From a virus: a stretch of DNA of 64,000 nucleotides. Both the position numbers and the translations under genes were made by a program. The stretch spans positions 1 to 64,000 of IMG/VR virus record IMGVR_UViG_3300033144_003327; one strand, written 5' to 3'. Below, in pieces: positions 6,390 to 46,184 of the stretch; the stretch's first letter is position 1; every line of letters begins with the position of its first letter. Below the pieces are notes generated by a model. The model had not been told where the DNA came from. It worked only from the letters and a program-made list of their open reading frames with translations, and did no database searches.

Positions 6390-6413
6390 TTTGGGGCTTA
6401 TGTAAAGTGAAGG

Positions 6414-6456
6414 CTTGTGTTCGTGAGTCAAGGCTATACTATTAGAACTGAAGCTA
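6414..6456 (+). promoter_or_regulatory. class-1 conserved promoter-like element (copy 1 of 4)
   Basis: CTTGTGTTCGTGAGTCAAGGCTATACTATTAGAACTGAAG; shared with 23211, 24845, 32118; -35 like TTGTAA / -10 like TACTAT/TATTAA, followed by AGAAAGGAAG RBS. Confidence 0.45.
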
Positions 6457-11455: not shown

Positions 11456-11460
11456 AGGCG

Positions 11461-13122: not shown

Positions 13123-13133
13123 AGGAGAATGAA

Positions 13134-13679: not shown

Positions 13680-13716
13680 ATTTCGTCTCGCGATGATTAT
13701 CAAATTAAGGATCCTG

Positions 13717-13863
13717 ATGGTATTAAAACTGAAAGAGATATGGGGTGACTGGAAATGCAAACTCTTCCACAAGACCCATTGGAAATGGAACGTAAGCAAG
13801 GATCTTCCCTTTGGAGGTAACTATTGGGAATGTCAAAAATGCGGTAGAGGCTGGCGCGTATGA
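13717..13863 (+). CDS. small zinc-ribbon protein
   Basis: 48 aa, CKLFH...CQKCG; ATGA overlap with downstream dpdA-like gene. Confidence 0.25.
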   Translation: MVLKLKEIWGDWKCKLFHKTHWKWNVSKDLPFGGNYWECQKCGRGWRV

Positions 13864-17788: not shown

Positions 17789-19775
17789 TCGATGGGACTC
17801 TATTGGCGTGGCGTGGGAAACGCCCACCAAAGAGAAGAAGAAAGGCGGGGGATATATCAGCACAGTGAGACCAGCGATACCTGAGACACAGTGGAACAGG
17901 CCAACTGAATTTCCAAATCTATCAGCGGCGAAGATGATTGCAGTTGATTTAGAGACACGCGACCCGCAACTGCTACAAAAAGGCCCGGGTCCTCGACGCA
18001 AGGAGGAAGAAGGCGGGTTCATCGCAGGTATAGCGGTTGGCGTTGGCCCGCGTGATGGCGAACAATGGTACTTCCCGATGCGCCATGAAAGTGGCGGCGC
18101 CAATTTTGATCCAGATATGGTTCTTATGTGGGCCAGGGATCAATTATGCAGGCCTAATCAACCGAAACTAGGTGCCAACCTCATGTACGATTTGGACTGG
18201 CTCCAAGACGCGGACGTCCCTGTAGAAGGCCCGTTTTATGACGTCCAAGTAGCAGAACCCCTAATTGATGAGAACGCTTTCAGTTATGCTCTCGGCAAAC
18301 TGGCTGACAAGTATGTCGGCGAAGGAAAGACCGAAGACGCGATGTACGAGTGGCTCTCTCTCGCATTCGGCGGCCAGCCTACACGTAGAGACCAAGGCGG
18401 AAACATCTGGAGAGCTCCCGCACAACTCGCGGGACCATATGCGGAAAGTGACGTTAGACTACCCTTCCTGATATGGGAAGAACAACAGAAAATAATCAAG
18501 CACGAAAACCTGGAGAAGGTGCTTGATCTGGAGACTCGTTTGATTCCGCTCCTATTGGCGATGAAAATTCGCGGCGTAAGGGTTGACACAAGTCAAGCGG
18601 CTGAACTTGACGAGGTCCTGGTCAAAAAGGCAACCGAATTCAGAGAACGGCTCATGGAATTCAACCTTGATCCCCAGAGCCGAGACTCGTTGGAGGGATA
18701 TTGCAATGAGCGCGGCATAAAATTCAAACGAACACCTGCTGGTAACTCATCATTTCCTGGCAAGTGGTTAGAGAAACATCAAGACGAGAATCTGAATCTA
18801 GCATATCAAGTTAGGAGGTTAGAGAAACATGCGGGTACATTTATTGAAGGAACGGTGCTTGGGAACGCTATTAACAACAGAATTCACGGACAATTCCATC
18901 AACTGCGAAACGATGATTATGGCGCGGTATCAGGAAGATTCAGTAGCTCTAATCCCAATCTCCAAAATATCCCGGCGCGAGACGAAGAGCTTGGGCCTCT
19001 CATTCGCGGACTATTTCTGCCTGAGCCTGATGAGGTTTGGTACTGCGATGATTGGTCGCAAATTGAATACCGGCTCCTCGTTCATTACGCAGTTGGTGAT
19101 GGTGCCGATCGAACCAGACGAAAATATTGCGACGACCCGACGACCGACTTCCACAAATACGTCGCCCAAATAGCCGACATCGATCGCAAAGAGGCGAAGA
19201 ACATCAACTTCGGCCTCGTGTACGGAATGGGCGAGCCGGCAATGGCGGCCAACATGGGAAGGTCACTCAAAGAAATCAAACCGATATTCAACGAATACCA
19301 CAAAGAGCTCCCGTTTGTGAGAGAGACCTACAACAAGGTCCAGAAGAGAGCTGAACGGCGTGGGTACATTCACACTCTTTTCGGTCGCCGACGACGCTTC
19401 AATTTGTGGGAACCGAAGAATTGGAACGAAGCGCGGGCCAACACCGCCAAACCTCACGCGGTAGCGATCGAGAAGTGGGGCGAGCAGTGGATTAAAAGAG
19501 CTGGTGGCCACAAGGCGTTAAACGCTCTACTTCAAGGCGGCGCGGCTGACATCATGAAAGTAGCGATGGTCGACATCTGGGAGAGCGGCGTCTGTGACGT
19601 TCTTGGCGCACCTCTGCTGACTGTCCATGATGAATTGAACTGGTCAGCACCGCAGACAAAAGAAGCGGATGAAGCCCACCAGACTGCTTTAGAAATTATG
19701 GAAACCTGCGTAGACTTGCGCATACCGCTGAAAGTAACGACAGGAAAAGGAGACAGTTGGGGTGCCGCCAAATGA
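17784..19775 (+). CDS. polA: DNA polymerase I family A with 3'-5' exonuclease domain
   Basis: IAVDLETRD (exo I), RKEAKNINFGLVYGMG (motif B), LTVHDELNWS (motif C). Confidence 0.9.
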   Translation: MSRWDSIGVAWETPTKEKKKGGGYISTVRPAIPETQWNRPTEFPNLSAAKMIAVDLETRDPQLLQKGPGPRRKEEEGGFIAGIAVGVGPRDGEQWYFPMRHESGGANFDPDMVLMWARDQLCRPNQPKLGANLMYDLDWLQDADVPVEGPFYDVQVAEPLIDENAFSYALGKLADKYVGEGKTEDAMYEWLSLAFGGQPTRRDQGGNIWRAPAQLAGPYAESDVRLPFLIWEEQQKIIKHENLEKVLDLETRLIPLLLAMKIRGVRVDTSQAAELDEVLVKKATEFRERLMEFNLDPQSRDSLEGYCNERGIKFKRTPAGNSSFPGKWLEKHQDENLNLAYQVRRLEKHAGTFIEGTVLGNAINNRIHGQFHQLRNDDYGAVSGRFSSSNPNLQNIPARDEELGPLIRGLFLPEPDEVWYCDDWSQIEYRLLVHYAVGDGADRTRRKYCDDPTTDFHKYVAQIADIDRKEAKNINFGLVYGMGEPAMAANMGRSLKEIKPIFNEYHKELPFVRETYNKVQKRAERRGYIHTLFGRRRRFNLWEPKNWNEARANTAKPHAVAIEKWGEQWIKRAGGHKALNALLQGGAADIMKVAMVDIWESGVCDVLGAPLLTVHDELNWSAPQTKEADEAHQTALEIMETCVDLRIPLKVTTGKGDSWGAAK

Positions 19776-20622
19776 AATTGTTCCCAATATCTATCTTGGC
19801 GAAACTGGCGTCCTGCTCGCCTCCGGGCCTTCTCTTACAGAAGAGCAAGTGGAATTCATTCGTCCATACCACGAACGTGGCGAAATCCGTGTTTTCGGAC
19901 TCAATGACACCTACAAAATTTGTGACTTTCTCGATGTCTTTTATGCCTGCGACCCAAGGTGGTTCGAAGAGAACCTCGACGTTCTTGAGCATCCGTGTAC
20001 CCAAAAATGGACCCAAGATGAACGCGGTGCGGCGAAGTACAAAATTAACCGTATCAAAGGTAGTGGTGGGAAAGGACTCAGCAAAAAGGAAAATCATATC
20101 AATTTCGGATCCAACAGCGGTTTTCAGTTACTGAATCTGGCATGGCACTATGGCATACGACAATTCATTTTATTGGGATACAACATGGATGTCCCTACAG
20201 GGATGCAACAACATTTCTTCGGAAAACATCCCAAACCACTCAACCAAGGGAACAACTATAGAGGATTCGCGAGATCGTTCGCGCAAATTGAAAAATCCGT
20301 CAGTGACCTGATAATCAATTGTACCTACCCGTCTAAACTGGATTGTTTCAGGAAGATGGAATTAGAGGAAGCACTAAATGGAGAACACAGAAGTCGCGGA
20401 CCTGCTGAGCAAAGCACCCCCGAAAAATCAACCGTATCCGGACCATCCAATATCCCCCATCTTCAAGGGGTATACGGGGGTACTCGTCGCTACTGGACCT
20501 TCGTTAAACAGAGCACAATTAGACCTATTGAGAGAATTGCATACGGAGGACCTGGTCAAGGTCTTCTCGATCAACAATGTCTACCAGGTGTACCCGTGGA
20601 CGGATGTCCATCTGTCATGTGA
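19762..20622 (+). CDS. MptE-like / DUF115 (Maf-like) protein, paralog 1; C-terminal 75 codons overlap paralog 2 out of frame
   Basis: GVLLASGPSL motif, FFGKHPKPL; homology to paralog 2 ends near 20400 but no stop until 20622. Confidence 0.5.
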   Translation: MPPNEIVPNIYLGETGVLLASGPSLTEEQVEFIRPYHERGEIRVFGLNDTYKICDFLDVFYACDPRWFEENLDVLEHPCTQKWTQDERGAAKYKINRIKGSGGKGLSKKENHINFGSNSGFQLLNLAWHYGIRQFILLGYNMDVPTGMQQHFFGKHPKPLNQGNNYRGFARSFAQIEKSVSDLIINCTYPSKLDCFRKMELEEALNGEHRSRGPAEQSTPEKSTVSGPSNIPHLQGVYGGTRRYWTFVKQSTIRPIERIAYGGPGQGLLDQQCLPGVPVDGCPSVM

Positions 20623-21151
20623 CGGCCCGTGGTGGCGATGGTACTGGCCAAAAGAACCTGACCTAAGAAACCTGCCCTGCCCGAAATACACCTGGTACCC
20701 CGAAATTGCGAAAGCGTTCGGAATAGATTACATTAAGGCTATCGTGAAAGATGGCCTGTCAACCGATCCCGGCATCGTTCATATCAATCACGGATCAGGT
20801 CCGATGATGATGAACCTAGCGTACCTTTACGGCATCAGGAATGTGGTCCTGCTAGGCCACGATATGAAATTCGCCCCGGACTACAACGCAGCGAAAAGGG
20901 ATCCTGGATCATTTCCACGACACTATTTCGGTGAGTATCCGAAACCATTACAACATTGGCCTTCGGTCAAAGTAAAACCTGACGGAAAGCTAGAAGGTCT
21001 GATTGAGACGTACAGGAAAATGCCGTTCGATGAGCTCGGTATGACAGTCACGAATTGTACGCCTGAATCAGCATTAGAATTCAATTACATGGATTGGAAG
21101 GAGATGGCAGATGGAATTAGGACCGCATCGTCCGGTACACGGGGAGCCTGA
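20378..21151 (+). CDS. MptE-like / DUF115 (Maf-like) protein, paralog 2
   Basis: GVLVATGPSL, YFGEYPKPL; aligns along length with paralog 1. Confidence 0.5.
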   Translation: MENTEVADLLSKAPPKNQPYPDHPISPIFKGYTGVLVATGPSLNRAQLDLLRELHTEDLVKVFSINNVYQVYPWTDVHLSCDGPWWRWYWPKEPDLRNLPCPKYTWYPEIAKAFGIDYIKAIVKDGLSTDPGIVHINHGSGPMMMNLAYLYGIRNVVLLGHDMKFAPDYNAAKRDPGSFPRHYFGEYPKPLQHWPSVKVKPDGKLEGLIETYRKMPFDELGMTVTNCTPESALEFNYMDWKEMADGIRTASSGTRGA

Positions 21152-21800
21152 TTACAAGTGGTATCACCACAAGTTAAAGGGAGTAGATCGTGAACGATGG
21201 ATGCTACCTCAAGACGAAGGGATGTATCAAAACTCCTTTGGTTTCGTTCTGGACAACATTGAAAGAACCGTTAAACACATCCCCGAAGACGACAGACAAT
21301 TGTGCGTTCAAGCCGGCGGGTGTTTCGGACTCTGGCCCTACCTTTACTCACTCTATTTTGAGGAGGTCGTTACGTACGAGCCCATGCCTGTAAATCTCAA
21401 ATGCCTGAAAAGAAATATCAGCGACAGGAAAAACATCACTGCATTCAGAAATGCTCTCAGTGATAAAGAAGAAATGGTTGACATGACCTATTCCAAACCG
21501 AATTTGAACAGCTACGGCGCGCACCACACGAAGTCTGAGGGTAGAATACAGGCATGGCCATTGGACGAATTCTATTGGGAACGGCTCGATCATCTTCAGT
21601 TGGACGTAGAGGGTGACGAGTTGAAAGTCTTGAAAGGTGCGGAACGGGTCATCGGAGAGTTCACTCCCTTAATCACTCTTGAGGTTAGGAACCTGCCGCA
21701 CATGACGATCCCTGCCGCCCGAGCTGAAACATGGTTGAAAAAGACATTCGGGTACAGGGAAATTGATAGGTTTGCCGGAGATAGGTTGTACTCAGTATGA
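21111..21800 (+). CDS. FkbM-family SAM-dependent methyltransferase
   Basis: VQAGGCFG SAM-binding motif and LQLDVEGDELKVLKGAE FkbM signature. Confidence 0.65.
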   Translation: MELGPHRPVHGEPDYKWYHHKLKGVDRERWMLPQDEGMYQNSFGFVLDNIERTVKHIPEDDRQLCVQAGGCFGLWPYLYSLYFEEVVTYEPMPVNLKCLKRNISDRKNITAFRNALSDKEEMVDMTYSKPNLNSYGAHHTKSEGRIQAWPLDEFYWERLDHLQLDVEGDELKVLKGAERVIGEFTPLITLEVRNLPHMTIPAARAETWLKKTFGYREIDRFAGDRLYSV

Positions 21801-22486
21801 AAGAATCAATGACGAAAGAACAATGGCATAAAACATACGGATGGCAGGAACACAACCATACCTATTGGCCTGCCGATTTCAAGTTCTTATGGCCTAATGG
21901 CGATAAGCTACTCCACGGTGACATACCGACTTTGGCACATTTGGACGAATTTGTGTTTCCTCTCGTACCTGAGAAGCGTGTCGCAGTCCAAGCGGGTGGA
22001 GCTATGGGCATGTGGGCCAAGAGAATGGCCCAAGAATTCGGTGTCGTGTATACGTTTGAGCCAAATCCGCAGAGCTTCTATTGCTGTAGTTTCAATTGCC
22101 CGGAGGAAAATGTCGTGCCTTTCCATGCTGCCTTGGGAGCTGAGCCGGCTCTAATCAAAGTGAGCACGCCGCACCGTGAGCAGAATTACGGGGCCAACCG
22201 TGTCACTGGCGCGGGGCACGTTCCCGTCATGACTATCGACAGTCTAGAGCTTGAGCATTGCGACCTCCTGATGTTAGACATCGAGGGATACGAATTGTTC
22301 GCCTTGCAAGGTGCGTTGGAGACGATTAAGAGATGCAAACCTGTCATCGTTCTGGAGGACAAAGGATGCTCCACAGAGTTCGGATATCAAAAAGGGCGCG
22401 TTGAAAGATTCCTGCAGAGAAAGGCGAAGTACCGAACCCATTCACGATTCCATGGCGATAGGGATGTGATACTATGTCCAGAATGA
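21797..22486 (+). CDS. FkbM-family SAM-dependent methyltransferase (paralog)
   Basis: VQAGGAMG and LLMLDIEGYELFALQGA. Confidence 0.65.
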   Translation: MKESMTKEQWHKTYGWQEHNHTYWPADFKFLWPNGDKLLHGDIPTLAHLDEFVFPLVPEKRVAVQAGGAMGMWAKRMAQEFGVVYTFEPNPQSFYCCSFNCPEENVVPFHAALGAEPALIKVSTPHREQNYGANRVTGAGHVPVMTIDSLELEHCDLLMLDIEGYELFALQGALETIKRCKPVIVLEDKGCSTEFGYQKGRVERFLQRKAKYRTHSRFHGDRDVILCPE

Positions 22487-23208
22487 TCACTCAATCAACG
22501 TTGACCACCAACGGTGTCGATTTAAAAACACCTCCCCTGCCGGTGCCACCGCGCGTCACTTCCGGGCCTTCCCCAGCTCATGTGATCGTGGTGTGCGTCT
22601 GGTGGGGGAGTCAATACGGTGTGGAATATGTCGAGAAGCTGAGGAACTCTGTCGCGAGAAATCTCACGATACCCCATGATTTTCTCTGTGTGACGTCCCA
22701 CGTCGGCCCCGACGGTGTCACACGTATTAGTCCACCACGTGGAGGTGAAGGTTGGTGGCAAAAGGTGAACCTATTCGATCCCCTGATGTTCCCCTCCGGT
22801 GTACGAGTCCTCTATTTAGATTTGGATGTGGTCGTGGTTGGCTCTCTCGATAAGCTCGCCTCATCGAATGAACCATTCTGTATGATTGAGAATTACGGCC
22901 CCAACAAAGGCCACGCCGCGCACAATTCATCGATCATGTTGTGGACGCCCGATGAGAAGACCGCAAGGATCTACAACCTGTTCAGTGATGATGTCCCAAA
23001 ACAGCTACACGGTGACCAGTGTTGGATATGGCGCGTAATGAGAGACGACATAACTGATTTTCATCAGAACATGGCCGTGTCATATAAGTATGAAAAAGCG
23101 TCACCGAATTGGCATCACGCTGACGACAAGACTGCTGTCGTCGTGTTCCACGGGCAGCCAAAGCCCCACCAGGTAAAGGACCAAATGATTGTCCAGAATT
23201 GGCAATGA
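22474..23208 (+). CDS. putative GT-A-fold glycosyltransferase
   Basis: VIVVCVWWGSQYG N-terminal beta-strand and LYLDLDVVVVGSLD DxD-like motif. Confidence 0.35.
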   Translation: MSRMITQSTLTTNGVDLKTPPLPVPPRVTSGPSPAHVIVVCVWWGSQYGVEYVEKLRNSVARNLTIPHDFLCVTSHVGPDGVTRISPPRGGEGWWQKVNLFDPLMFPSGVRVLYLDLDVVVVGSLDKLASSNEPFCMIENYGPNKGHAAHNSSIMLWTPDEKTARIYNLFSDDVPKQLHGDQCWIWRVMRDDITDFHQNMAVSYKYEKASPNWHHADDKTAVVVFHGQPKPHQVKDQMIVQNWQ

Positions 23209-31478: not shown

Positions 31479-31771
31479 GAGGCGTCGTTCAAATTATCCG
31501 ATGCAAAGACCATCTGTCAATCGGTGAGCACAATGCGGACGTGGGCAAACAACACGTCATCGCCGTTTGCGACGACGGGACGCTGTGGCACGGCATGATG
31601 TCTTACGACTACAAAGATGAGTTCACTACAACGGAGAAGGATTTAATAGTACAATGGACCCAACTAAACACACCACCCGACGGCGATCACTTGCCAAAGG
31701 ATACGCGGGGTAGGTGGGACAAAATTGAGGAACAGATTCGTGAAGAAGATGATTCAAATATCACTGACTGA
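31475..31771 (+). CDS. hypothetical protein
   Basis: 98-aa ORF coupled to fic. Confidence 0.25.
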   Translation: MRGVVQIIRCKDHLSIGEHNADVGKQHVIAVCDDGTLWHGMMSYDYKDEFTTTEKDLIVQWTQLNTPPDGDHLPKDTRGRWDKIEEQIREEDDSNITD

Positions 31772-32096
31772 CGCTGAACGTCTGTTTGCGGCGCGCCGTA
31801 CTGGAGACGAGAACCAACAAGCGGTCGCGGCGTCTGCAGGATTCCACCAGACGGCAATCTCCAAAATGGAGAAAGGAGAGATCCCTGTGAATCCGAGATT
31901 GATAAAGAGATTTCGTGATGACGATGATCTTCCCGACTACATCTATTTGTCGTTAGTGCGGCGCAGGTATCAATTCAAATTGGCTGAGGCGGCTGTGCAA
32001 TGCGGCATTGCCACCCACCGTTTGGGTGACATGGAACGTGGCCGCGTGGATCCTGATCCAGCATACGTGTCGTGGTTGGAATCCTTAATGAAATGA
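31725..32096 (+). CDS. XRE-family helix-turn-helix transcriptional regulator (two HTH-like segments)
   Basis: QQAVAASAGFHQTAISKMEKGE and FKLAEAAVQCGIATHRLGDMERGR. Confidence 0.5.
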   Translation: MRNRFVKKMIQISLTDAERLFAARRTGDENQQAVAASAGFHQTAISKMEKGEIPVNPRLIKRFRDDDDLPDYIYLSLVRRRYQFKLAEAAVQCGIATHRLGDMERGRVDPDPAYVSWLESLMK

Positions 32097-32117
32097 TTTT
32101 CAAGTTATGTTAAGAAA

Positions 32118-32159
32118 CCATTGTAACGATGAGTGAGGCTGTTACTATTATATATGAAG
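32118..32159 (+). promoter_or_regulatory. class-1 conserved promoter-like element (copy 4)
   Basis: CCATTGTAACGATGAGTGAGGCTGTTACTATTATATATGAAG then CACACAGAAAGGAAGAG RBS. Confidence 0.45.
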
Positions 32160-36783: not shown

Positions 36784-36830
36784 GTGCCCTAGGACACACT
36801 TTGATTGATTCAGACTGCTATACTATGAGC
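36784..36830 (+). promoter_or_regulatory. class-2 intergenic element (copy 1): palindrome GTGCCCTAGGACAC + TATACT
   Basis: same motif as at 39167, 39492, 40208, 41062; followed by GAAAGGAAAAGGAAAACGAAATG. Confidence 0.45.
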
Positions 36831-36855
36831 TTGTAGAAAGGAAAAGGAAAACGAA

Positions 36856-37002
36856 ATGAGCAATCTAAACAAATTTTTGAAATCACTTGGACCGGATGCT
36901 TTGGATCGTGAAGACAATCGTACAGAGAAAGAGAAAGAAGAAGCTCGTCGTGAGGATATGCAAGAACAACGTGACGAATTGAAAACGGATCGCAGGGCCT
37001 AG
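36856..37002 (+). CDS. small acidic/basic protein (48 aa)
   Basis: below ORF-track threshold; strong RBS and class-2 element upstream. Confidence 0.25.
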   Translation: MSNLNKFLKSLGPDALDREDNRTEKEKEEARREDMQEQRDELKTDRRA

Positions 37003-37019
37003 AGAAAGGTGATTTGCGA

Positions 37020-37435
37020 GCTTAGGGTGATGTACGCATAACAAACTGAAATGACTTTTTTTATTTTAGGGAATATCCTGGTTTTATACCCTATGGGACT
37101 AGTTCCTATATAAATCAACACACGATAGAGCCTAGCAATAATTTACTTTAGCCTAAGGTACCTATATAACTGATTATCTTGGTGTAACTCAGCTTGGAAT
37201 TATCAGTTATGTTGTAGGTATGGTAATGTGGTAGAGCCTAGTGGTAGATGATTTGTGAGTAACAGGGATTCTTGTTCTGGTGCCGCGCGCATGTGAAGTT
37301 CACTTTTTATTTTTTTGAATTTGAGTCGTTACGTGTATAGGGCCTAAGTTCTGTCTCTTGGTGGATCGTTTTGGATTTGGGTCAGGGTGTGTTATCGTTG
37401 GTTTCCTGCTTATCTAGCTGAGGGAATCACTAGCG
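37020..37435. promoter_or_regulatory. AT-rich non-coding region upstream of terS with GCCTA(A)G repeats (candidate pac/late-regulatory region)
   Basis: ~415 nt with no ORF; repeats AGAGCCTAG x2, AGCCTAAGG, GGGCCTAAG; TATATAA boxes. Confidence 0.3.
37293..37316 (+). terminator. weak hairpin + T-run
   Basis: GTGAAGTTCAC followed by TTTTTATTTTTTT. Confidence 0.3.
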
Positions 37436-38029
37436 ATGGAAGCTCAAGAAGAACTGTTATCTGTCTCCGATCCGCAGGAGCCGGGCTTTAGGTGGACCCT
37501 AAAGAAGAAGAGGTTTGTTTCTAACTTCGTAAGGAATAACGGAAACGGCGCCAAGGCTGCTGTTGATGCGGGTTACACTGATCCGTCAGCGACAGGCCGT
37601 CTGCTTCAGCAAACGCTGGTTCGTCAGGCCATACATGACGAGCTCCGTGCCTGTCTACAAAAAGAGGGCGAAAATTCTGAGACAATAATCGCGAGATGGG
37701 CCAATATGGCTCAGGCCAATTTGGCTGACTATTTCAAAATGGATCAGGAGGGAGAATTGACGTTGGTGGACCTGACTCTCCTGACAAAAGATCAACAACT
37801 CAGGCTCAAGAAGATCACTGCTACGAGAAACCAGTACGGTCAGAACATCACTGTTGAGTTGCACGATGTCTTGAAAGCGAATGACCGATTGGCGGAGATT
37901 CACAATCTGTTGAAAGCTGAGCAAGGCTTCCTACCTCCTGATCAAACTGCCGCCGAAATACGCGACGCGATCAAGAAGATGGATGCTGTAGACGGGATAG
38001 AACGTCCCGCTGACGTCACTCTTCAATAG
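37436..38029 (+). CDS. terS: terminase small subunit (Terminase_2/P27-like)
   Basis: LKKKRFVSNFVRNNGNGAKAAVDAGYTDPSATGRLLQQ matches Terminase_2 N-terminal HTH pattern (LtpKQ..F..eYl..gNataAa..AGYs..tA). Confidence 0.7.
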   Translation: MEAQEELLSVSDPQEPGFRWTLKKKRFVSNFVRNNGNGAKAAVDAGYTDPSATGRLLQQTLVRQAIHDELRACLQKEGENSETIIARWANMAQANLADYFKMDQEGELTLVDLTLLTKDQQLRLKKITATRNQYGQNITVELHDVLKANDRLAEIHNLLKAEQGFLPPDQTAAEIRDAIKKMDAVDGIERPADVTLQ

Positions 38030-38040
38030 CCTCGCATTAT

Positions 38041-38620
38041 GTTAGATTACATAATACGCCTGAACTCCCTAGTGATTTAACATAACGTCTTAACATAATC
38101 TCGTTCATCAATTTGAGAGAAAAAGCGCTCCGCGTTCTCTTTCCCACGTTCGTGAAAAATACGCTCCGCGTTCTCTTTCTACAAAAACCGCTCCGCGTTC
38201 TCTTTCATATTCTCGTTGAGAGAGAGTCATTGGGATTACATAATGTCTTAACATAATCCGACTTAACATAATGTCTTAACATAATCCGATTGAGAGAGAA
38301 TCAGACTCAGTCTCATCATCATGATGTCTCACGATTTAACATAATGTCTCAACGAGAGAGGGCCTGTGGATAACTTATGCACAACTGTGGATAACTTTTG
38401 ATTTAACATAATCCTCAAACGAGAGCCAGAAGGACTCTTAACATAATGTCTTAACATAATCCCAGAAGTCTGAGAGATCATTATGTTTAATCAATGAGTC
38501 ATTTAACATAATGTCTTAACATAATCCTGAAACGAGTCCCAGACTCTCTTCGATCATGATCAGATAGAGAATGGTGGCGCACCCTCCCTCCTCCGTACCC
38601 GGCTTAGGTTTTACATAATG
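38041..38620. repeat. iteron array with two DnaA boxes (putative replication origin)
   Basis: ~13 copies of TTAACATAATGTC/TTAACATAATCC in 5 clusters; 3 copies of 18-bp CGCTCCGCGTTCTCTTTC (38125, 38162, 38189); two perfect DnaA boxes TGTGGATAA (=TTATCCACA) at 38366-38374 and 38386-38394; 10-bp IR TTACATAATG/CATTATGTAA near 38607. Confidence 0.55.
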
Positions 38621-38684
38621 ACGAACCTTTTAGAGGAACGACATTATGTAAAGTGTGATCAGCAACCCGGCCAGCGCGGCCCGT

Positions 38685-38987
38685 TTACTTAACAAAACGT
38701 GTCGCGATAATTTGTGCCGCTGCGCCAATTTCGTAATTGCTTATTTTGCTGTTGCGTCGAATCACTTCGCCGTCGTAAATTAACTGCATGGCCAATTCCA
38801 ACGTTGCACTATGCTGCTCCGCATATTCAACATTTTCAAAAAGGTCCGGCAAACACCCACCGACGTCGGCGGAGTATTCTTCGACTACTAATTCCGTAAG
38901 TGACAATTCCATTTTAAATATTCCTTTCGTGTAGTGTGAATATGCATAGTAACACAATTCCAACTCACTACAAGCGGTTTTTAACAT
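38685..38987 (-). CDS. hypothetical protein (minus strand, next to origin-like repeats)
   Basis: 100-aa ORF in otherwise non-coding stretch; one of very few credible minus-strand genes. Confidence 0.25.
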   Translation of the reverse strand: MLKTACSELELCYYAYSHYTKGIFKMELSLTELVVEEYSADVGGCLPDLFENVEYAEQHSATLELAMQLIYDGEVIRRNSKISNYEIGAAAQIIATRFVK

Positions 38988-39166
38988 AACGCCAAAATGA
39001 TTTGATTTAACATAATCCTGAAACGACTCCCAGATTGACTTAACATAATTGGACGGATCTCTCGCATTTTCTCGGGTAGACCTATACCTTGGTATTGGGA
39101 AGATTTGCGCGCCGTCAGCGTGGAATGAGTAATAATTTGCTCACAATTGCAGTGATATGCTATAAT

Positions 39167-39235
39167 GTGCCCTAGGACACAGTATGTCTCACTCAATCAT
39201 ATACAATGTGATTACACACTTAGGAAAGGAAAACG
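39167..39235 (+). promoter_or_regulatory. class-2 intergenic element (copy 2), preceded by consensus TATAAT at 39161
   Basis: GTGCCCTAGGACAC then degenerate hairpin, ACACTTAGGAAAGGAAAACGAAATG. Confidence 0.45.
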
Positions 39236-39237
39236 AA

Positions 39238-39486
39238 ATGAACGACACATACAAATCAGCTGAAACGGTTATACGTGGTTTCAAAGTAGAGCTGGAGATT
39301 GAAGGTGACGGCGACGACATAGTGTCCAGCTGTTTTGTTTACACCCCGGATCAAAATTACGGCAGCTCACTTGCACTGCTCATGGCCGAAGGTTTCATCG
39401 AACACGACAACGGATACGATGTGAAACGCATAAGGGACTACGTCCGCAACGAAATTGAAGATTGGGCACTGGAAAACGGATATTGA
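39238..39486 (+). CDS. small early-type protein
   Basis: 82 aa, acidic. Confidence 0.3.
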   Translation: MNDTYKSAETVIRGFKVELEIEGDGDDIVSSCFVYTPDQNYGSSLALLMAEGFIEHDNGYDVKRIRDYVRNEIEDWALENGY

Positions 39487-39491
39487 AAAAC

Positions 39492-39560
39492 GTGCCCTAG
39501 GACACAGTATAGCTGACTCATTCAGCTATACTGTGATTACACACTTAGGAAAGGAAATTA
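39492..39560 (+). promoter_or_regulatory. class-2 intergenic element (copy 3)
   Basis: GTGCCCTAGGACAC + perfect hairpin CAGTATAGCTGA-CTCAT-TCAGCTATACTG (39505-39533) containing TATACT. Confidence 0.5.
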
Positions 39561-39562
39561 AA

Positions 39563-39808
39563 ATGTCATCACCGAAAATGGTCAGTTACGTAACAAGCAA
39601 GCCGGATTGCCAAGCAATGATCAAAGCATTGCGCGCCGCCGGGCAGGATGTAATCAAAGATTCGCTGGGCGGCTACCACGCCAGCATGTACCAGTACGCT
39701 ACGAAGGACGGCGTGCGCACTGGAAAAGAGAGGCAAATCAAACTGTTCACAGCACTGCCGGGCCGCAACGGATATTTAGTTCGCCGCGTCGAAAATTTGT
39801 TCTCGTAG
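39563..39808 (+). CDS. small early-type protein
   Basis: 81 aa. Confidence 0.3.
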   Translation: MSSPKMVSYVTSKPDCQAMIKALRAAGQDVIKDSLGGYHASMYQYATKDGVRTGKERQIKLFTALPGRNGYLVRRVENLFS

Positions 39809-39873
39809 GTCTTGGGCTGGGCATTGCACTAGCAGTGCCCAGCGTTGGACACACACACAGAAAGGAAAACGAA

Positions 39874-40206
39874 ATGAACATAACACCACTTGAAGCGTTG
39901 GCCCTCAACCACTACGCATTTGACGAAATGAATCCCGTCAACGGTGCGCGGCCGGAAAGCGCTGACGATGTACACTGCTACGTTTGGATCGACGAGCTGG
40001 CGCCCCACTTGGACATTAGCATGTCGGCAGCGAAGGGCGTAGTCAGCTCACTTGTTAAAAAGGGGCTGGTGCAAGTTTCCAGCGACGAAGACCCGCAGGA
40101 GAGGGGGCTTAACTTTACTGAAGAGGGCTACCGCGTTTGGTGCACAATTGCCGACGCAGAGGACATTGCCGTCAGCTGGGAAATCAAAAACGCACATTGC
40201 GAGTAA
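39874..40206 (+). CDS. small winged-helix-like protein
   Basis: start after CACACAGAAAGGAAAACGAAATG; MSAAKGVVSSLVKKGLVQV recognition-helix-like. Confidence 0.3.
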   Translation: MNITPLEALALNHYAFDEMNPVNGARPESADDVHCYVWIDELAPHLDISMSAAKGVVSSLVKKGLVQVSSDEDPQERGLNFTEEGYRVWCTIADAEDIAVSWEIKNAHCE

Positions 40207-40207
40207 C

Positions 40208-40275
40208 GTGCCCTAGGACACAGTATAGCTGACTCATTCAGCTATACTGTGATTAACAAGTAAGCACACACAGGA
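40208..40275 (+). promoter_or_regulatory. class-2 intergenic element (copy 4)
   Basis: GTGCCCTAGGACAC + identical 12-bp-stem hairpin (40221-40249). Confidence 0.5.
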
Positions 40276-40353
40276 AAGCAAAATGTTAATTATCCAAAAA
40301 GTCATCAGCAAGTCAACTGGCAAAATCGTCACCATCAAATTGTGGGTGTCGTA

Positions 40354-40566
40354 ATGCTAATCAAAACCAAGTACACGTTCCAAACGCCCGGCGAGCACGT
40401 TGCCGCACTTGCACTGCTACAGCAGCAACCAGCCGCCCGCTACATTATTGACCGTTTGGAAATAACAGTCATCGCCCACATGCCGACAGTACGCTTGTTC
40501 AATGTTTCGCTAGTGCAAGCGCACATCACATATTTTAGAGGCGCCGAGCGCCCAGTGGAGAAATGA
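40354..40566 (+). CDS. small hypothetical protein
   Basis: ORF 40342..40566. Confidence 0.25.
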   Translation: MLIKTKYTFQTPGEHVAALALLQQQPAARYIIDRLEITVIAHMPTVRLFNVSLVQAHITYFRGAERPVEK

Positions 40567-40796
40567 AAATGAGCAGTCAATACATCACACACATAAGCCC
40601 GTTCACGCATATGTGCGAGGACTTGGATTGGTTCAAAGGAAATGGTTTTTACGTTTGCACGCCAGCCCTCAGTTCTGACGGAACAGGTTTGCAGCAACGC
40701 TGGGACGGCCCGTTTGTTGACGTCCAAGCCGCACGTTTGGAGTATGGCAATATTCGCTGCCACACACCAGCCCTCGGCAGCAGGAGTGGAGGATAA
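40563..40796 (+). CDS. small hypothetical protein
   Basis: 77 aa, ATGA-coupled. Confidence 0.25.
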   Translation: MKMSSQYITHISPFTHMCEDLDWFKGNGFYVCTPALSSDGTGLQQRWDGPFVDVQAARLEYGNIRCHTPALGSRSGG

Positions 40797-41008
40797 TGAG
40801 AAACGGATATTTGGAAAGACAGGACGAGGTGGTGGCCAAAATTAAATGGCGCATTGCTGCATTGGAGGAAGCCCGCATTGAGTGGGTACAGCAAGCCAAC
40901 GAAAGTAACAGCTGGAACGAGAACGGTGAACTGACCGAGGCTTGCGCTAACGAACGGGAGCAGGATGGCTTGCGCTACGCACTAGCACTGCTGGAGCGGA
41001 CGAAATGA
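40796..41008 (+). CDS. small hypothetical protein (coiled-coil-like)
   Basis: 70 aa. Confidence 0.25.
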   Translation: MRNGYLERQDEVVAKIKWRIAALEEARIEWVQQANESNSWNENGELTEACANEREQDGLRYALALLERTK

Positions 41009-41061
41009 ATTTTCCCAACCTTTCCGCGCTGGAAATATGGTTGCGGTGGAATAGCTAATCT

Positions 41062-41130
41062 GTGCCCTAGGGCACAGTATGGTTCACTCATTCAGCTATA
41101 ATGTGATTGAACAGTTAGCAAACACACACA
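41062..41130 (+). promoter_or_regulatory. class-2 intergenic element (copy 5, perfect palindrome GTGCCCTAGGGCAC)
   Basis: perfect 14-bp palindrome + degenerate hairpin + CACACACAAAGGAAAGGAACATG. Confidence 0.45.
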
Positions 41131-41435
41131 AAGGAAAGGAACATGGAAACTTTAAAAATCGAAACAATTACTCTCGTCGGCGAAAGCGTAACAGTAACCG
41201 AAGAAATCGTCTACGTTGAAAAAGTAATTTTGGAGGAAGTGTAAAATGGTCATCATCGCATTTTCATTCGCACTGTTTTTCGTATACGCAGTAATTTTTG
41301 AGTAAGGCTTGGGTGGTGCATTGCACTAGCAGTGCACCACGTTGGACTTACACACACAGAAAGGAAAATTGAAATGGAATATTACAGCATTGAAGATTAC
41401 CACTTTTGGACGTGGATTGATTCGTGGGGTGACTT

Positions 41436-41618
41436 ATGAGCACTGTGGTAGAGACAATCGACTGCACCCCAACGTGGGAAGCGGCAACACGGATTTACAT
41501 CGCAGTGTTGCGCAACCCAGACGCTGGCCTGGAAGCTCAAGCCGCCGCCGAAGAGGACCTCCTTGCACTAGCAAAGGCAATGGACGGAATTAAATCATCT
41601 AGGGAGGCTCAATCATGA
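41436..41618 (+). CDS. small hypothetical protein
   Basis: 60 aa; preceded by 21-codon mini-ORF with ATGA coupling. Confidence 0.25.
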   Translation: MSTVVETIDCTPTWEAATRIYIAVLRNPDAGLEAQAAAEEDLLALAKAMDGIKSSREAQS

Positions 41619-41929
41619 GTAACATGAGCTACTGCCGGTTTGAAAATACGTACAGGGACCTCGTGGATTGTCAAGAGGCGCTGGACGAGCTGGGCAACAG
41701 CTACAGCATCCAATGTCAAATGAAGGCCAAAACCAAAGAGCTGGAGGCAGCCCACGCAGCGGATGATGTAGACCTGGTCGATAAGTTGGGATGCGAAGTG
41801 GACGACCTCCGTGACCAGCTGGGCGCACTCAGTGAAAGTGAGCACCAGTACGCTGTGCAGTTGCTTTTACTGTGCCAAGAGATGGTGGACCAGTTTGACC
41901 CGGACGACATTATTGCGGAGGACGGATAA
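41615..41929 (+). CDS. small acidic hypothetical protein
   Basis: 104 aa. Confidence 0.3.
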   Translation: MSNMSYCRFENTYRDLVDCQEALDELGNSYSIQCQMKAKTKELEAAHAADDVDLVDKLGCEVDDLRDQLGALSESEHQYAVQLLLLCQEMVDQFDPDDIIAEDG

Positions 41930-42052
41930 TGTACCAGGTACTAGATAGCCAGGGGCGTGTAGCTACTACGCACGCCACCCTGGCCAGTGCTCAAGCGTGG
42001 ATTGTCATAGTCGGCACTGCCGATAAGCAGTACACGATACAGGAGGTGCCCA

Positions 42053-42253
42053 GTGCATAACCACTCTATCACCACCGTGTATGATGATGGTACCCAGCTG
42101 TCTATGCAGTGCACTAGCACAGAAGACAATGCGGATCAGCGTACAGCAGTACACCTTAAAGACAGGCAACGTGATGCACAGCGTACAGACCTTGGTATAC
42201 TGCACTACGTGGTGACGTTTAACCACGAGGTACATGTACTGATACAGGATTAA
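42053..42253 (+). CDS. small hypothetical protein
   Basis: 66 aa. Confidence 0.25.
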   Translation: MHNHSITTVYDDGTQLSMQCTSTEDNADQRTAVHLKDRQRDAQRTDLGILHYVVTFNHEVHVLIQD

Positions 42254-42299
42254 CCTAGTGTGTGTGTGCTTAGGCAGTACTGTATAGACATACAGTACT

Positions 42300-42560
42300 G
42301 TCTTTTTTTATCTACGGCTCTTAACATAACGTTATTACATAATACGAGCCTCTCTATCTCTCTTATTTAACATAACGTAGTTACATAATACCATCCTCTC
42401 TATCTCTCTATCTCTTAACATAATGTAGATCATAGATAGTCATGATCATCTATCAGATAGAGAGACAGATCATAGAGAGATTATGTTAAGACGTTATGTA
42501 ATCTCGTATTATGTAAAGACATTATGTTAAGATTACATAACGTTATTACATAAGCCCCAC
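42300..42560. repeat. second iteron region: imperfect large palindrome with TTAACATAA / TTATGTTAA in opposite orientations
   Basis: TTAACATAACG / TTACATAATAC repeats on left, TTATGTTAAGA / TTATGTAA on right, CTCTCTATCTCTCT tracts, centre near GATAGTCATGATCATCTATC. Confidence 0.45.
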
Positions 42561-42643
42561 CACCCCACCACCACGAATTTCATTTAATGTACCCAAGATC
42601 GCGGAGACAGTACTCAGCGATCAGTATTGACCACCAGACGGTA

Positions 42644-42820
42644 TTAAAACCTGAGTGATGCTTTGTCCGGTGGCCTCTTAGGATCATGATCGACAATCTT
42701 GACTGATTGGAACCCGCCCAAAACCAGGGCATCGGCTTTGGCGGACGCCGCCTCCATCGCCATGTTCTTCCCGAACCTCATCCGGCCACTTAGGCCAATG
42801 GCAGTAACATCGTATCGCAT
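42644..42820 (-). CDS. small protein (58 aa) on minus strand with phage-consensus RBS
   Basis: reverse complement reads GAAGATAAGGAGAAAGGAAG-ATG CGA TAC ...; RBS identical to consensus of + strand genes; not in ORF track (<60 aa). Confidence 0.35.
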   Translation of the reverse strand: MRYDVTAIGLSGRMRFGKNMAMEAASAKADALVLGGFQSVKIVDHDPKRPPDKASLRF

Positions 42821-42961
42821 CTTCCTTTCTCCTTATCTTCAGTTTTAATAGTAACACAATCACTCAGCCATACAACCACTTCGTTACATAATCCCCAAAT
42901 GAACTAGCGATATGAGCGAGACAGATGTATCATCAGGAAAAGCCAGCCACACGGTATTAAA

Positions 42962-44386
42962 ATGTCACTAAGACTTGACCACGAAACAGAATTAACCAGT
43001 CGCTGGACCCCTATGCGGTATCATGCGGAGCAATCCCGTCTCTGCAGAAGCCAGGCCAGGTTCAAAGTCGTACCCGCCGGACGCCGTAGTGGCAAGACAG
43101 AGAGAGCCAAACGTCAAGTCGTGAAAGCGGCCTTGAGTTCCACAGGACCGAGTCCAGCTTATTTTTGCGCGGCACCAGTCAGAGATCAAGCGAAGAGAAT
43201 CTATTGGGATGATCTAAAACTCCTGGTAGGTCAGCGATACATGATGCGGCGCCCGAGTGAGAGCGAGCTCACAATTTGGACAGTAAACGGTGCGAAGATT
43301 GTCGTGATTGGAATGGACAGGCCGGAGAGGATCGAGGGAACACCTTGGGACGGTGGGATTCTAGATGAGTACGGAAACATGAAAGAGACGGCGTGGATGG
43401 AGAACGTACGGCCAGCATTGGCGGACCGGATGGGGTGGTGCTGGTTGATCGGAGTGCCCGAGGGTAGGAACCACTATTACGAGAGATATCGGTTCGCTCA
43501 GGGACCAGGGAATGTCAAGAACGGAGGTGAGTGGGACGCGTTTACTTGGTTCAGTTCTGATATCCTGACGCCGGAGGAGATAGCTGCGGCCCGCGCGGAC
43601 CTCGACCTACTAACCTACCAGCAGGAATACGAGGCGTCGTTCATTAACTTCACGGGTCAGTGTTATTACCCGTTTGATGAAAAAGTCCACTGCACAAACC
43701 TGAAACAGAATTACAATCCGAATAGGGACCTGATCATCTGTTTCGACTTCAACGTCGATCCCGGCGTGGCAGTCATCTGTCAGGAAATGGCATACCCGCG
43801 CATCATCCTACCCATCAAAGGCCTGAAGGTAGACAACAGGACGATGTTCCGCGACAGTGTCATCGACGTGGCACCCGCGGGCACGGCAGCGATTGGTGAA
43901 GTCCATATTCCAAGAAATAGCAATACCCGGGCCGTATGCCGTAAACTAATTCACGATTGGGCCGAGCACCAAGGAAGAATTTTGATTTATGGTGACGCGA
44001 CGGGCGGAGGTAGGAGTACCACGTCGGACCAACCAGGTGAGAATGATTGGGATATCGTCAAGAATGAACTCTATGGATTCTTCGGAGCAACACGAGTGTT
44101 GATGCACGTACCAGGCAAGAACCCGACAGAGCGATCACGAGTGAACTCGATGAATACGAGATTAAGGACGGGCGATGATACGATACGTCTGATGGTAGAT
44201 CCTGCAGAATGCCCCAGCCTGGTACATGACCTTGAGGGCGTGAGACTCTTGGAAGGCGGAAGCGGCGAGATTGATAAGAAGGCAGACCCAAAATTGACCC
44301 ACTTGACCGACGCTCTCGGATATTACATCGTGGCAGAGTTCCCGGTCAGGCAGGAAGTGTTCAGCATCAACGAATTGAGGGCATGA
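42962..44386 (+). CDS. terL: terminase large subunit
   Basis: Walker A VVPAGRRSGKTE near N-terminus, nuclease-domain acidic residues downstream; 474 aa. Confidence 0.85.
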   Translation: MSLRLDHETELTSRWTPMRYHAEQSRLCRSQARFKVVPAGRRSGKTERAKRQVVKAALSSTGPSPAYFCAAPVRDQAKRIYWDDLKLLVGQRYMMRRPSESELTIWTVNGAKIVVIGMDRPERIEGTPWDGGILDEYGNMKETAWMENVRPALADRMGWCWLIGVPEGRNHYYERYRFAQGPGNVKNGGEWDAFTWFSSDILTPEEIAAARADLDLLTYQQEYEASFINFTGQCYYPFDEKVHCTNLKQNYNPNRDLIICFDFNVDPGVAVICQEMAYPRIILPIKGLKVDNRTMFRDSVIDVAPAGTAAIGEVHIPRNSNTRAVCRKLIHDWAEHQGRILIYGDATGGGRSTTSDQPGENDWDIVKNELYGFFGATRVLMHVPGKNPTERSRVNSMNTRLRTGDDTIRLMVDPAECPSLVHDLEGVRLLEGGSGEIDKKADPKLTHLTDALGYYIVAEFPVRQEVFSINELRA

Positions 44387-44387
44387 C

Positions 44388-46184
44388 GTGGCGCACAAGA
44401 AAGCACCTGTAGCGAAACCGAACGACGAATACAATGTGATGTCGTTGTTTTGGCATTTAACAGCCAGCCTCCGTGGTGGCACGCCAGCGATGCGCGGCGC
44501 CGGGCGGACGTACCTGCCCCAGGAGCCCGCTGAGAGTGAAGAGGCATACAAGAACCGTGCGCTGAGATCAGTCCTGACAAACCTTTACAAGAAGACAGCT
44601 GATAAGCTGGTGGGCAAGCCTTTGAAGAAAGGGGTGAAACTTTTAGAAGACGTCCCGCCAGAGATACGCAAGTTTGAGCCGAACATCGATAACCAGGGCA
44701 CCAATCTCAACGTATTTGCGAGAAACGTATTAGATTCCGCGGTTGACGACGGGGTGACCCACATTCTCGTTGATTTCAGCGATACTCAGAGCGTAGACGG
44801 TGAGTTCCCAGACGGAAGCCTGACATTGGCGCAAGAACAGAGGCTCGGAGTGCGGCCATACGCGCGACACGTCAGGGCCGCGGACTTGATAGGTTGGAAA
44901 AGTGAGCTCGTCAACAACAGTAAGGTCCTGACTCAGATCAGAATACAAGAGTTCGTGAAAGTGCAGGATCCGGATGATGAGTTCTCCCAAATCATGGTTG
45001 AAAGAATTCGGGTGGTGGAGCCTTTCCTGCAGAGGGTCTACGAGAGACAGACGAAAGAGAACGTCGGTGATGATAAGGATGAATACGTCCTAATTGAAGT
45101 GAAACCGACGACCATGCCTGTCATACCGTTAGTAACTTTCTACACTAATAAGAAAGGATTCATGCAAGGTGAGCCACTCTTGCTGGACATCGCGTACCTG
45201 AACGTGGCGCATTGGCAGAGTGACAGTGATCAACGTAACATTCTACACATCGCGCGGATTCCCATACTGTTCGCGACTGGTTTTGGCGATGACGACAGTC
45301 AAATCACGATAGAAATCGGTTCTAATACCTTCGCGAGAGCCCCGAAGGGCGCGACGTTGAGTTACGTGGAACATACGGGCAAGGGCATTGAGGCGGGAGC
45401 AAAAGACCTCAAGGATCTAGAAGAAAGAATCGTCCTCTTAGGAATGGAGATGTTGACGAAGCGACCACAGGGTAACGTGACGGCAACAGCACGGTCCATG
45501 GATCAGGTAGAAGCGGATAGCATCATTGGGCTAATCGCTAAAGAATTAGAAAACGCCATGGATGCGATGTTAGACTTGTTCGGAAGATGGTTGAACCTGG
45601 GCGTTGACTCCGGCGGCAGGACCGAAGTGTTTAAAGACTTCGGAATCGAGAGCGAAGATCTACAGGATGTTGAAATACTCCTTAGAGCTCGCATGGCCGG
45701 TGAAATTAGTCAGACAACGTTCTGGGATGAGATAAAACGTAGAGGACTCTTGAGTGACAGTTTTGATCCGCGCACGGAAATCGACCTCCTTGATATCGAG
45801 TCGGGTGGGTCGGTCAACATCACGGACAGCGGCCAAGGTGAGGATCCTGAAGAAGGGCTTCCAGGGGCGGCGCCTGAAAGACGCAACCGCGTCGGGGATA
45901 CCACTGCGGAAACCGACGGGCATACGCACGTCCTTCAAAGCGGGGACGTAACGGACACCGTCACAAATGAAGATGGTGAAAGTCACTCACATACGTGGGA
46001 CGAGCTAGGCATTAGAACATCAGTCGAAGATGCACATTCGCATCTTTTAGTCGTTAGAGCTGCCGCCGGCAGCCATGTAGGAGCAGAGGAAGATGAGCCA
46101 GAAGACAGTAGTGAAGGGGAGCAACCGCCAGGCCAGGCGCCAACCGGGTCAAGCCAGCAAAACAATCAATCGTCGGGCGCCTAG
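44388..46184 (+). CDS. portal protein (tentative)
   Basis: 598 aa directly after terL; acidic, His-rich C-terminal tail. Confidence 0.5.
   Translation: MAHKKAPVAKPNDEYNVMSLFWHLTASLRGGTPAMRGAGRTYLPQEPAESEEAYKNRALRSVLTNLYKKTADKLVGKPLKKGVKLLEDVPPEIRKFEPNIDNQGTNLNVFARNVLDSAVDDGVTHILVDFSDTQSVDGEFPDGSLTLAQEQRLGVRPYARHVRAADLIGWKSELVNNSKVLTQIRIQEFVKVQDPDDEFSQIMVERIRVVEPFLQRVYERQTKENVGDDKDEYVLIEVKPTTMPVIPLVTFYTNKKGFMQGEPLLLDIAYLNVAHWQSDSDQRNILHIARIPILFATGFGDDDSQITIEIGSNTFARAPKGATLSYVEHTGKGIEAGAKDLKDLEERIVLLGMEMLTKRPQGNVTATARSMDQVEADSIIGLIAKELENAMDAMLDLFGRWLNLGVDSGGRTEVFKDFGIESEDLQDVEILLRARMAGEISQTTFWDEIKRRGLLSDSFDPRTEIDLLDIESGGSVNITDSGQGEDPEEGLPGAAPERRNRVGDTTAETDGHTHVLQSGDVTDTVTNEDGESHSHTWDELGIRTSVEDAHSHLLVVRAAAGSHVGAEEDEPEDSSEGEQPPGQAPTGSSQQNNQSSGA

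Follow-up and report, generated by a model that had tools for sequence, protein, structure and literature searches.

Genes and word arrays between terS and terL

The window, meaning the whole 64,000-nucleotide stretch of DNA that was analysed, has all of its genes on the plus strand except for two small ORFs. It encodes a UvrD-like helicase, a family-A DNA polymerase and several glycosyltransferases, followed by a portal protein and structural genes, and it has a full 7-deazaguanine module (FolE, QueD, QueE, QueC, and QueF-like and DpdA-like proteins). The genes for the small and large terminase subunits, terS and terL, are separated by 4.9 kb. This gap holds two untranslated arrays of a short repeated word, R1 and R2, and the order of its features is terS, R1, g75, three further words (38982-39050), a cassette of small genes, a terminator, R2, the motif M2, g58 and terL (Table 1). 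Owing to this layout of genes and terminator, both R1 and R2 lie in convergent, transcription-free gaps.

Table 1. Coordinates of the features discussed in the text (window positions).
Feature	Position	Strand	Remarks
word-bearing promoter outside the cassette	6398..6442	+	same architecture as the g58 promoter
two-HTH XRE-type protein	31725-32096		candidate binder; conserved, word-bearing promoter downstream
word-bearing promoter	32105..32148	+	directly after the two-HTH XRE-type gene
terS, small terminase	37436..38029	+	PF03592
R1, sister array	38030..38660	.	18 words, mostly +
g75, 75-aa ORF	38685..38912	-	transcribed toward R1
g75 word-bearing promoter	38946-38989	-	
early-type cassette	39158..42253	+	~12 small genes
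intrinsic terminator	42272..42303	+	strong, closes the cassette; conserved in L114
R2 imperfect palindrome	42319..42532	.	~214 bp; inverted-repeat pairs I1-I13, ssDNA fold, GC minimum
R2 left arm	42322..42425	+	five words T(T/A)ACATAA(T/C); repeat family D1
R2 centre	42426..42480	.	GATC x3, GATAG/CTATC, GA tracts
R2 right arm	42481..42530	-	four words = two 13-bp dimers, mirror of left
R2 terminal word pair	42533..42554	+	ATTACATAAcgttATTACATAAg
M2, C-rich motif	42555..42574	+	CCCCACCACCCCACCACCAC, then GAATTT; upstream of terL in all word-bearing relatives
g58, 58-aa ORF	42644..42820	-	strong Shine-Dalgarno; transcribed toward R2
g58 word-bearing promoter	42848..42891	-	TTATGTAAC-N8-TTGTAT-N16-TACTAT
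terL, large terminase	42962..44386	+	PHROG 2, E = 1.9e-31

The cassette starts with an extended -10 promoter-like sequence (TGcTATAAT, 39158-39166), and its genes are set apart by repeated hairpin-plus-leader units. In Pfam and PHROG searches with all of the cassette ORFs, the sole match was a weak wHTH in the 110-aa g3, encoded at 39874-40206. Rfam and tRNA scans of the region gave no match. Transposon ends were considered and rejected, as there is no transposase or recombinase gene in 38030-42960 and no matching terminal inverted repeats are found at the edges of the block. The hairpin-plus-leader units belong to two families, one with four members (39154-39240, 39479-39565, 40195-40281, and 41049-41135) and one with two (39805-39859 and 41302-41356) that show compensatory stem changes. 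Folding z-scores for both families range from -3.5 to -5.9, and the units resemble sites of RNase III processing or shuffling cassettes of the T4 PeSL kind.

R2 is an AT-rich array of about 240 bp (42319-42556) with eleven copies of tTTWACATAAt, a word 10-11 bp long that takes the form T(T/A)ACATAA(T/C) in R2. Read from the left, the array has five plus-strand words, four minus-strand words, and a further two in the plus orientation (starts at 42322, 42335, 42368, 42381, 42416, 42533, and 42546 for plus, and at 42481, 42494, 42509, and 42522 for minus). The start-to-start spacings are 13, 33, 13, 35, 65, 13, 15, 13, 11, and 13 bp, and the majority of the words form dimers at 13-bp spacing. The left arm is made of two 46-bp units, each with one such dimer and a CTCTCTATCTCTCT tract, and then a lone word. 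The complement of these CT tracts, AGATAGAGAGA, is found to the right of the centre, and the centre around which the words are arranged is rich in GATC (42428, 42444, and 42468) and GATAG. As single-stranded DNA the palindrome folds into one long hairpin of 214 nt with an energy of -42.2 kcal/mol, compared to -16.6 +/- 3.3 for shuffled sequences (z = -7.8). R2 has the lowest GC content of the window at scales of 60, 100, and 200 bp, and the lowest nearest-neighbour stability as well.

The word is enriched about 60-fold in the window and is clustered. TTAACATAA occurs 20 times versus 0.34 expected from shuffles, and TTACATAA occurs 15 times versus 1.34. The degenerate form T[TA]ACATAA is found 36 times, with 31 of these within 38037-42884. 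The first-pass annotation had described a second word-repeat region forming a large imperfect palindrome with CT-dinucleotide tracts around its centre, and the eleven words in both orientations, the fold, and the tracts agree with this. It had also placed the region just upstream of terL; the region is indeed upstream, but the array ends 400 bp before the terL start codon (42962), with the minus-strand ORF g58 between them. A CRISPR array was rejected because the units are 10-13 bp long, occur in both orientations, and have low-complexity spacers, unlike CRISPR repeats of 28-37 bp with unique spacers of similar length.

The g58 ORF lies between two copies of GGTATTAAA (42640 and 42953). In related phages these copies are only about 75-95 bp apart, so g58 is a small lineage-specific insertion before terL. 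GGTATTAAA is found three times in the window, always in intergenic DNA. A longer pattern, GATG(T/A)(A/T)TATCA-N17-GGTATTAAA, occurs before terL (42925-42961) and before the DpdA-like gene (13690-13727), and it may mark a second class of promoter, late or middle.

R1 starts 8 bp past the terS stop codon and is 4.3 kb from R2. Its words extend across 38037-38657, confirming the earlier claim that R2 uses the same word family as 38041-38620. In a comparison of the two arrays the longest common stretch is 23 nt and inverted (38080 versus 42477), while ATCAGATAGAGA is common to the R2 centre and the right end of R1 (38559) in direct orientation. R1 also has three copies of CGCTCCGCGTTCTCTTTC (38126, 38162, and 38189), a trio of DnaA boxes (38365-38394), GATC pairs, and the C-rich motif M1 (38577-38591). 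The trio, TGTGGATAA c TTATGCACA ac TGTGGATAA, includes the only DnaA boxes in the 64 kb, and there are none in R2. GATC sites are clustered at two places, the centre of R2 and the right end of R1. Among related phages, only L108 has a DnaA trio (~760-795) with the same layout as that of R1 and with perfect and imperfect boxes swapped, and L110/L111 have a single perfect box within a different word array upstream of terS (L110 ~9600-9612). Three of the five lineages that carry the word have no DnaA box.

A second origin was one of the proposals of the first-pass annotation. It is possible, though doubtful, that R1 and R2 together make up a replication origin or control locus of the iteron or bipartite type, each contributing one half. 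A phage initiator would bind the word in both clusters, pair them, and open the AT-rich palindrome, and R2 would be the unwinding or copy-control cluster, comparable to incA of P1, incC of F, crr of P4, or the second cluster of boxes in a bipartite oriC. The DnaA boxes of R1, L108, and L110/L111 point to this function, as do the GATC clusters, the low GC content and stability of R2, and the position of two clusters of one word in transcription-free gaps at a distance of 4.3 kb. A second control cluster is found in the iteron replicons P1 (incC-repA-incA) and F (incB-repE-incC), and P4 has ori and crr. These systems likewise have two clusters of the same word a few kilobases apart, in both orientations, with DnaA boxes and GATC in one of them, and the binding protein is expected to act by pairing the clusters. 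However, no initiator gene (Rep, O, alpha, or DnaD-like) was found beside or between R1 and R2, and the intervening genes are not conserved. Plasmid iterons are phased units of 19-22 bp (17-22 bp for tandem, helically phased iterons), whereas the word is 10-11 bp long with irregular spacings of 13-46 bp (13, 15, 28, and 46 bp). The lack of DnaA boxes in R2 and in three lineages also argues against an origin, as does the nearest lineage, L114, with only three words at the R2 position. In addition, isolated words are found at several unrelated promoters, which is unusual for a plasmid-type initiator.

The word as a promoter element

The word is part of a promoter family. Five words outside the arrays led to the consensus TTATGTWAA-N7-8-TTGTRN-N16-TACTAT, a sigma-70-type promoter with a weak -35 in which the word occupies about -53 to -45. 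The pattern TTATGTWA-N7-10-TTGNNN-N15-17-TAYWAT has four matches in the window versus 0.00 expected, two of them plus-strand (6398 and 32105) and two minus-strand (38989 and 42891). The minus-strand pair are the promoters of g75 and g58, whose leftward transcription leads into R1 and R2, respectively. An alignment over about 70 bp can be made of six family members, which are paralogous copies of one cassette. Therefore within the window the word could be hitch-hiking, and it is the relatives only that argue for constraint. The same layout is found in L090 (2831 and 5507), L098 (1340, 7456, 7514, and 7732), and L106, and in these phages the core hexamers have diverged. A weak -35 combined with a conserved element near -50 is the usual layout of a factor-dependent promoter, suggesting that the word-bearing promoters are factor-dependent. 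The term iteron, used in the first-pass annotation, is too narrow, because the word is an upstream element of promoters elsewhere in the genome.

Candidates for the protein that would bind the word are the two-HTH XRE-type protein and TerS, and a host factor is conceivable. The XRE-type protein is 62% identical in L090, and in both phages a word-bearing promoter follows its gene. In an alignment of TerS sequences the HTH has no special conservation among the word-bearing lineages, and there is no discriminating signal. An HeH-like protein of 111-114 aa, encoded in the cassettes of related phages, has no homologue in the window and is therefore excluded as the common binder. Among the consensus sites for IHF, Fur, TyrR, OmpR/PhoB, and CtrA, we know of none that fits the word and its spacing.

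Our leading reading, which we hold tentatively, is that R2 is a multi-site array for a sequence-specific DNA-binding protein and has a regulatory or architectural role. One protein would recognise tTTWACATAAt, and R2 would be a dense cluster of its sites. Since the word has a fixed place in a promoter family, this protein would be a transcription factor at those promoters, either an activator or a repressor. The arrays, R1 after terS and R2 after the cassette terminator, occupy the non-transcribed gaps that flank the cassette. As the protein accumulated it would coat R1 and R2, and it may bridge them. The coated arrays would separate the cassette from the late operon for the terminase and structural proteins, acting as a roadblock to read-through and to the leftward transcripts of g58 and g75. 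In addition, they would buffer the supply of free protein to promoters that carry the word, among them a conserved word-M2-word island that precedes terL.

We rank a regulatory or architectural role first because, among the functional clues, only the link to promoters is direct and at the same time shared by all lineages. The word is identical in five lineages while the flanks, spacing, copy number, and cassette genes differ, and the island upstream of terL is kept in all of them. The four matches to the promoter pattern include two far outside the arrays and the two that drive g75 and g58, and the gaps that hold R1 and R2 are convergent and bounded by terminators. The labile copy number and spacing suit a role that depends on density and not one that requires exact geometry; coating of the DNA, a roadblock, a loop joining R1 to R2, and buffering of a factor are examples. 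On the other hand, binding is predicted from the sequence, and the window promoters are paralogous, with the chance of hitch-hiking that this brings. The DnaA trio in R1 of two lineages and the perfect box in the terS-adjacent array of a third are not predicted for a pure transcription-factor array. The least stable DNA of the window and the GATC-rich centre in R2 are origin-like, and the arrays touch both terminase genes, which is the usual place of pac or cos sites. Finally, the terS-adjacent arrays of distant relatives use other words, which are not at promoters.

Looping operator clusters are comparable in part. In lambda OL/OR and in the phi29 p4/p6 complex of the early-late switch, as here, one word is found at promoters and in clusters flanking a block of genes, and a comparable nucleoprotein complex over many sites could act as a switch or an insulator between early and late transcription. 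In contrast to those systems, R2 and R1 have many more sites (11 and 18 per cluster), mostly not beside a promoter, and no repressor or lysogeny module is evident in the window. The arrays might also be decoys that titrate a phage transcription factor. Each new genome copy would bring about 30 densely placed sites, and as copies multiplied the factor would be drawn away from the word-bearing promoters, which would set the timing of the early-to-late switch. We consider this unlikely; if true, it would mean a replication-counting device made from promoter-derived words and located between both terminase genes.

The terS-terL interval in related phages

The arrays do not correspond to known plasmid, host, or prophage elements, since no DNA or dimer match beyond chance was found. 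A megablast search with 41000-45000 against GenBank phages and PLSDB plasmids gave no match. An exact scan for the word dimer gave zero matches in IMG/VR, and in GTDB genomes it gave 38 single matches in unrelated taxa, which were treated as chance. The 34 IMG/VR loci with related TerL proteins are too distant to be informative. By protein searches, the window belongs to a 66.4-kb JGI metagenome contig, and a 6.5-kb contig from a second sample is 99.9% identical over 36819-43322.

Comparison of related phages indicates that R2 is the terL-side boundary of a hypervariable early-gene cassette. In L082-L088 (TerL 63-64% identical) terS overlaps terL and the word is absent, and terS and terL are also adjacent in MW202621 and L001. 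The five closest lineages, which form a subclade with the window (TerL 69-83% and TerS 54-74% identical), all have the same word. In this subclade the terS-terL gap is 1.2-4.9 kb and contains arrays of the identical word around small genes, and in no relative do these genes have homology to the window cassette. The robust conclusion is that R2 is a real, selected cluster of putative sites for a sequence-specific DNA-binding protein and the edge of this cassette on the side of terL. The suggestion in the first-pass annotation that R2 could be the boundary of an inserted module is thus supported.

The word is constant, but the copy number, spacing, orientation, and flanks of the arrays differ in every lineage. 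Periods of 13, 17, and 26-30 bp are found, and copy numbers range from 3 to at least 16. L098 covers the full interval, with a 3.2-kb spacer between terS and terL that has about 29 words, seven of them at a 17-bp period. L090-L092 end, and L078 and L081 begin, in at least 14 direct copies of the word with CT-rich spacers. Array sizes are three words in L114, eleven in the window, and six in L074, L076, and L098. L114 is the nearest lineage (TerL 83%), and since it has only three words at the R2 position, the large palindrome is a recent, lineage-specific expansion of a small conserved element. Absence from close relatives, which had been named beforehand as evidence against the proposals for R2, is thus seen in part: the region is present in L114 with three words, but it is missing from distant relatives with the canonical terS-terL arrangement. 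The features kept across the lineages are the word, M1, M2, and an island of word-M2-word-GAGCCTGGAGAC-GGTATTAAA before terL. In the relatives this conserved island ends about 130 bp before terL.

The variability of the cassette raises the question of whether the words are only a scaffold for recombination. They would promote exchange of cassettes by homologous or slipped recombination, in the manner of boundary sequences in mosaic phages or of T4 PeSL cassettes, and R2 would have no function beyond that of the few words linked to promoters. The wholly different cassette content between flanks that retain the word, the fast change in array size (three, eleven, and six words), and the assembly breaks at this region in many samples are all consistent with such a scaffold. 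It is nevertheless quite unlikely to be the whole explanation. A 10-bp word is too short for homologous recombination, the strict conservation of the word next to diverging spacers points to recognition by a protein, and the arrays are located in transcription-free gaps beside the conserved motifs M1 and M2.

Word arrays next to terS are not limited to the subclade. In the wider clade, lineage-specific arrays adjoin terS in L086, L082, and L110-L112, and the terS-adjacent arrays of the more distant relatives use other words, none of which was seen at promoters. In L086, where the word of the window is absent, CTTAYAGACTGAAG is repeated seven times with purine-rich spacers at a distance of 600-800 bp upstream of terS (8630-8850), the same design of a word plus low-complexity spacer with a different word. 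A second word family, CGCTCCGCGTTCTCTTTC and CCGCTCCAGA..GTTCTCGCTCTTG, is found in R1 (38126-38206) and not in R2. The corresponding positions in other phages are L098 5740-5800 and 7085-7130, L108 480-580, L082 9005-9234, and L110 9529-9640. The family is similar to the GTTCTCG-TTTGTTCTC arrays found immediately before terS in relatives whose terS and terL are adjacent, and it may be an ancestral terS-linked site.

The proximity of the arrays to the terminase genes also suggests a role in packaging, another proposal of the first-pass annotation, which we regard as somewhat unlikely. The arrays would be recognition sites for TerS, and R2 or R1 would hold an end of the genome, whether a pac site, a cos site, or the border of a long direct terminal repeat. 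A terminal repeat would cover the cassette, making it the first DNA into the cell, and R1 with its DnaA boxes could act like the injection-stop region of phage T5. In favor of this, R1 begins 8 bp past terS and the word island of the relatives ends close to terL, lineage-specific arrays adjoin terS across the wider clade, the words are in both orientations around a centre as at known pac and cos sites, the cassette is about 6.5% of the 66.4-kb contig, and the architecture is close to that of first-step-transfer repeat regions 2 and 3 of T5. Known terminase recognition sites include the R sites of lambda cosB, SPP1 pacL and pacR, and the hexamers of P1 pac with GATC. Like these, R2 adjoins terminase genes and has short words on either side of a centre, which is GATC-rich as in P1 pac. 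The known sites differ from R2 in having 3-7 words, and they are not known to recur at promoters elsewhere; moreover, 4.3 kb lie between R2 and terS.

Several observations do not fit a genome end at the arrays. The contig and L089, the latter from JGI 3300033388, are continuous from terS through R1, the cassette, and R2 to terL. The contig ends of the relatives scatter over more than 1.5 kb and do not coincide at a single nucleotide, a pattern in keeping with assemblies broken by repeats and strain diversity. The word is also at promoters 6 and 32 kb away, and is therefore not confined to the packaging region. Words of the GTTCTC type, like those of the terS-adjacent arrays in the wider clade, are in R1 only. 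The HTH of TerS shows no special conservation in the lineages with the word, and no comparable arrays are present in phage Iggy, for which a terminal repeat of 1,091 bp has been mapped upstream of terS.

Repeat-rich untranslated regions near early and terminase genes are already known in phages, and those of T5 are the best described. First-step-transfer repeat regions 2 and 3 of T5 are two untranslated repetitive regions with common inverted units that flank poorly conserved small ORFs (10.1101/866236). They carry clustered DnaA boxes, short direct repeats, and palindromes, and they are conserved while the neighbouring genes are not (10.1101/866236). R1 and R2 are similar in being untranslated repeat regions with inverted units, and the regions compared are 1.9-4.3 kb apart, with variable small early ORFs between them. 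However, the T5 regions are in a 10-kb terminal repeat far from the terminase genes, whereas R1 and R2 are between terS and terL. In T5 the DnaA boxes are paired in both units, and here they are in R1 only and in some lineages only. No A1, A2, or Dmp-like genes were detected in the window cassette, and the T5 words are not known as promoter elements. The unusual features here are the split of terS from terL, the use of one word in promoters and arrays, and the recurrence of DnaA boxes.

In four relatives one word lies in the loop of an intrinsic-terminator hairpin (L076 ~455-490, L078 ~1685-1720, L098 ~8485-8520, and L074 ~1250-1285). The stem sequences vary by lineage and the pairing is kept. 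An action of R2 at the RNA level is conceivable but highly improbable. The leftward g58 transcript would pass through R2 and give a long hairpin RNA, serving as an RNase III substrate or an antisense regulator of the cassette. The orientation of g58 into R2 with no minus-strand terminator predicted between them, the strong fold of R2, and the covarying terminator stems around the word in relatives are compatible with this. Against it, there is no Rfam match, the direct arrays of the relatives are incapable of forming such hairpins, the palindrome is not kept in L114, and in promoters the word acts at the DNA level.

If the regulatory or architectural reading is confirmed, these arrays would be a cis-element system for a clade of uncultivated siphophages that modify their DNA with 7-deazaguanine. 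One 10-bp word would be both a promoter element and the unit of large arrays that fence a hot-swappable early-gene cassette between terS and terL. The word would provide a handle for finding this cassette in metagenomes, and the cassette is a likely store of host-takeover or anti-defence genes. It would also explain why assemblies of these phages break at this region, and would add a second, independent system beside T5 for the question of why DnaA boxes and thickets of repeats adjoin early genes. Should R2 prove to be an operator, origin, or pac site of the ordinary kind, its value would be mainly in annotation.

The terminator that closes the cassette has the stem TACTGTATAGACATACAGTA (42278-42297; ~222-241 in L114). 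It includes the only CTGT-N8-ACAG of the window (42280-42295), which is the pattern of LexA boxes in gamma- and beta-proteobacteria. This could be a clue to the host or a coincidence of the palindromic stem. Elsewhere in the window (2977-4504, 8302-14783, and 19762-23208), the genes for 7-deazaguanine biosynthesis and insertion have neighbours that encode three GT8 glycosyltransferases, two sialyltransferase-like proteins, and two FkbM methyltransferases, a set of predicted functions that hints at further modification of DNA or of surface glycans.
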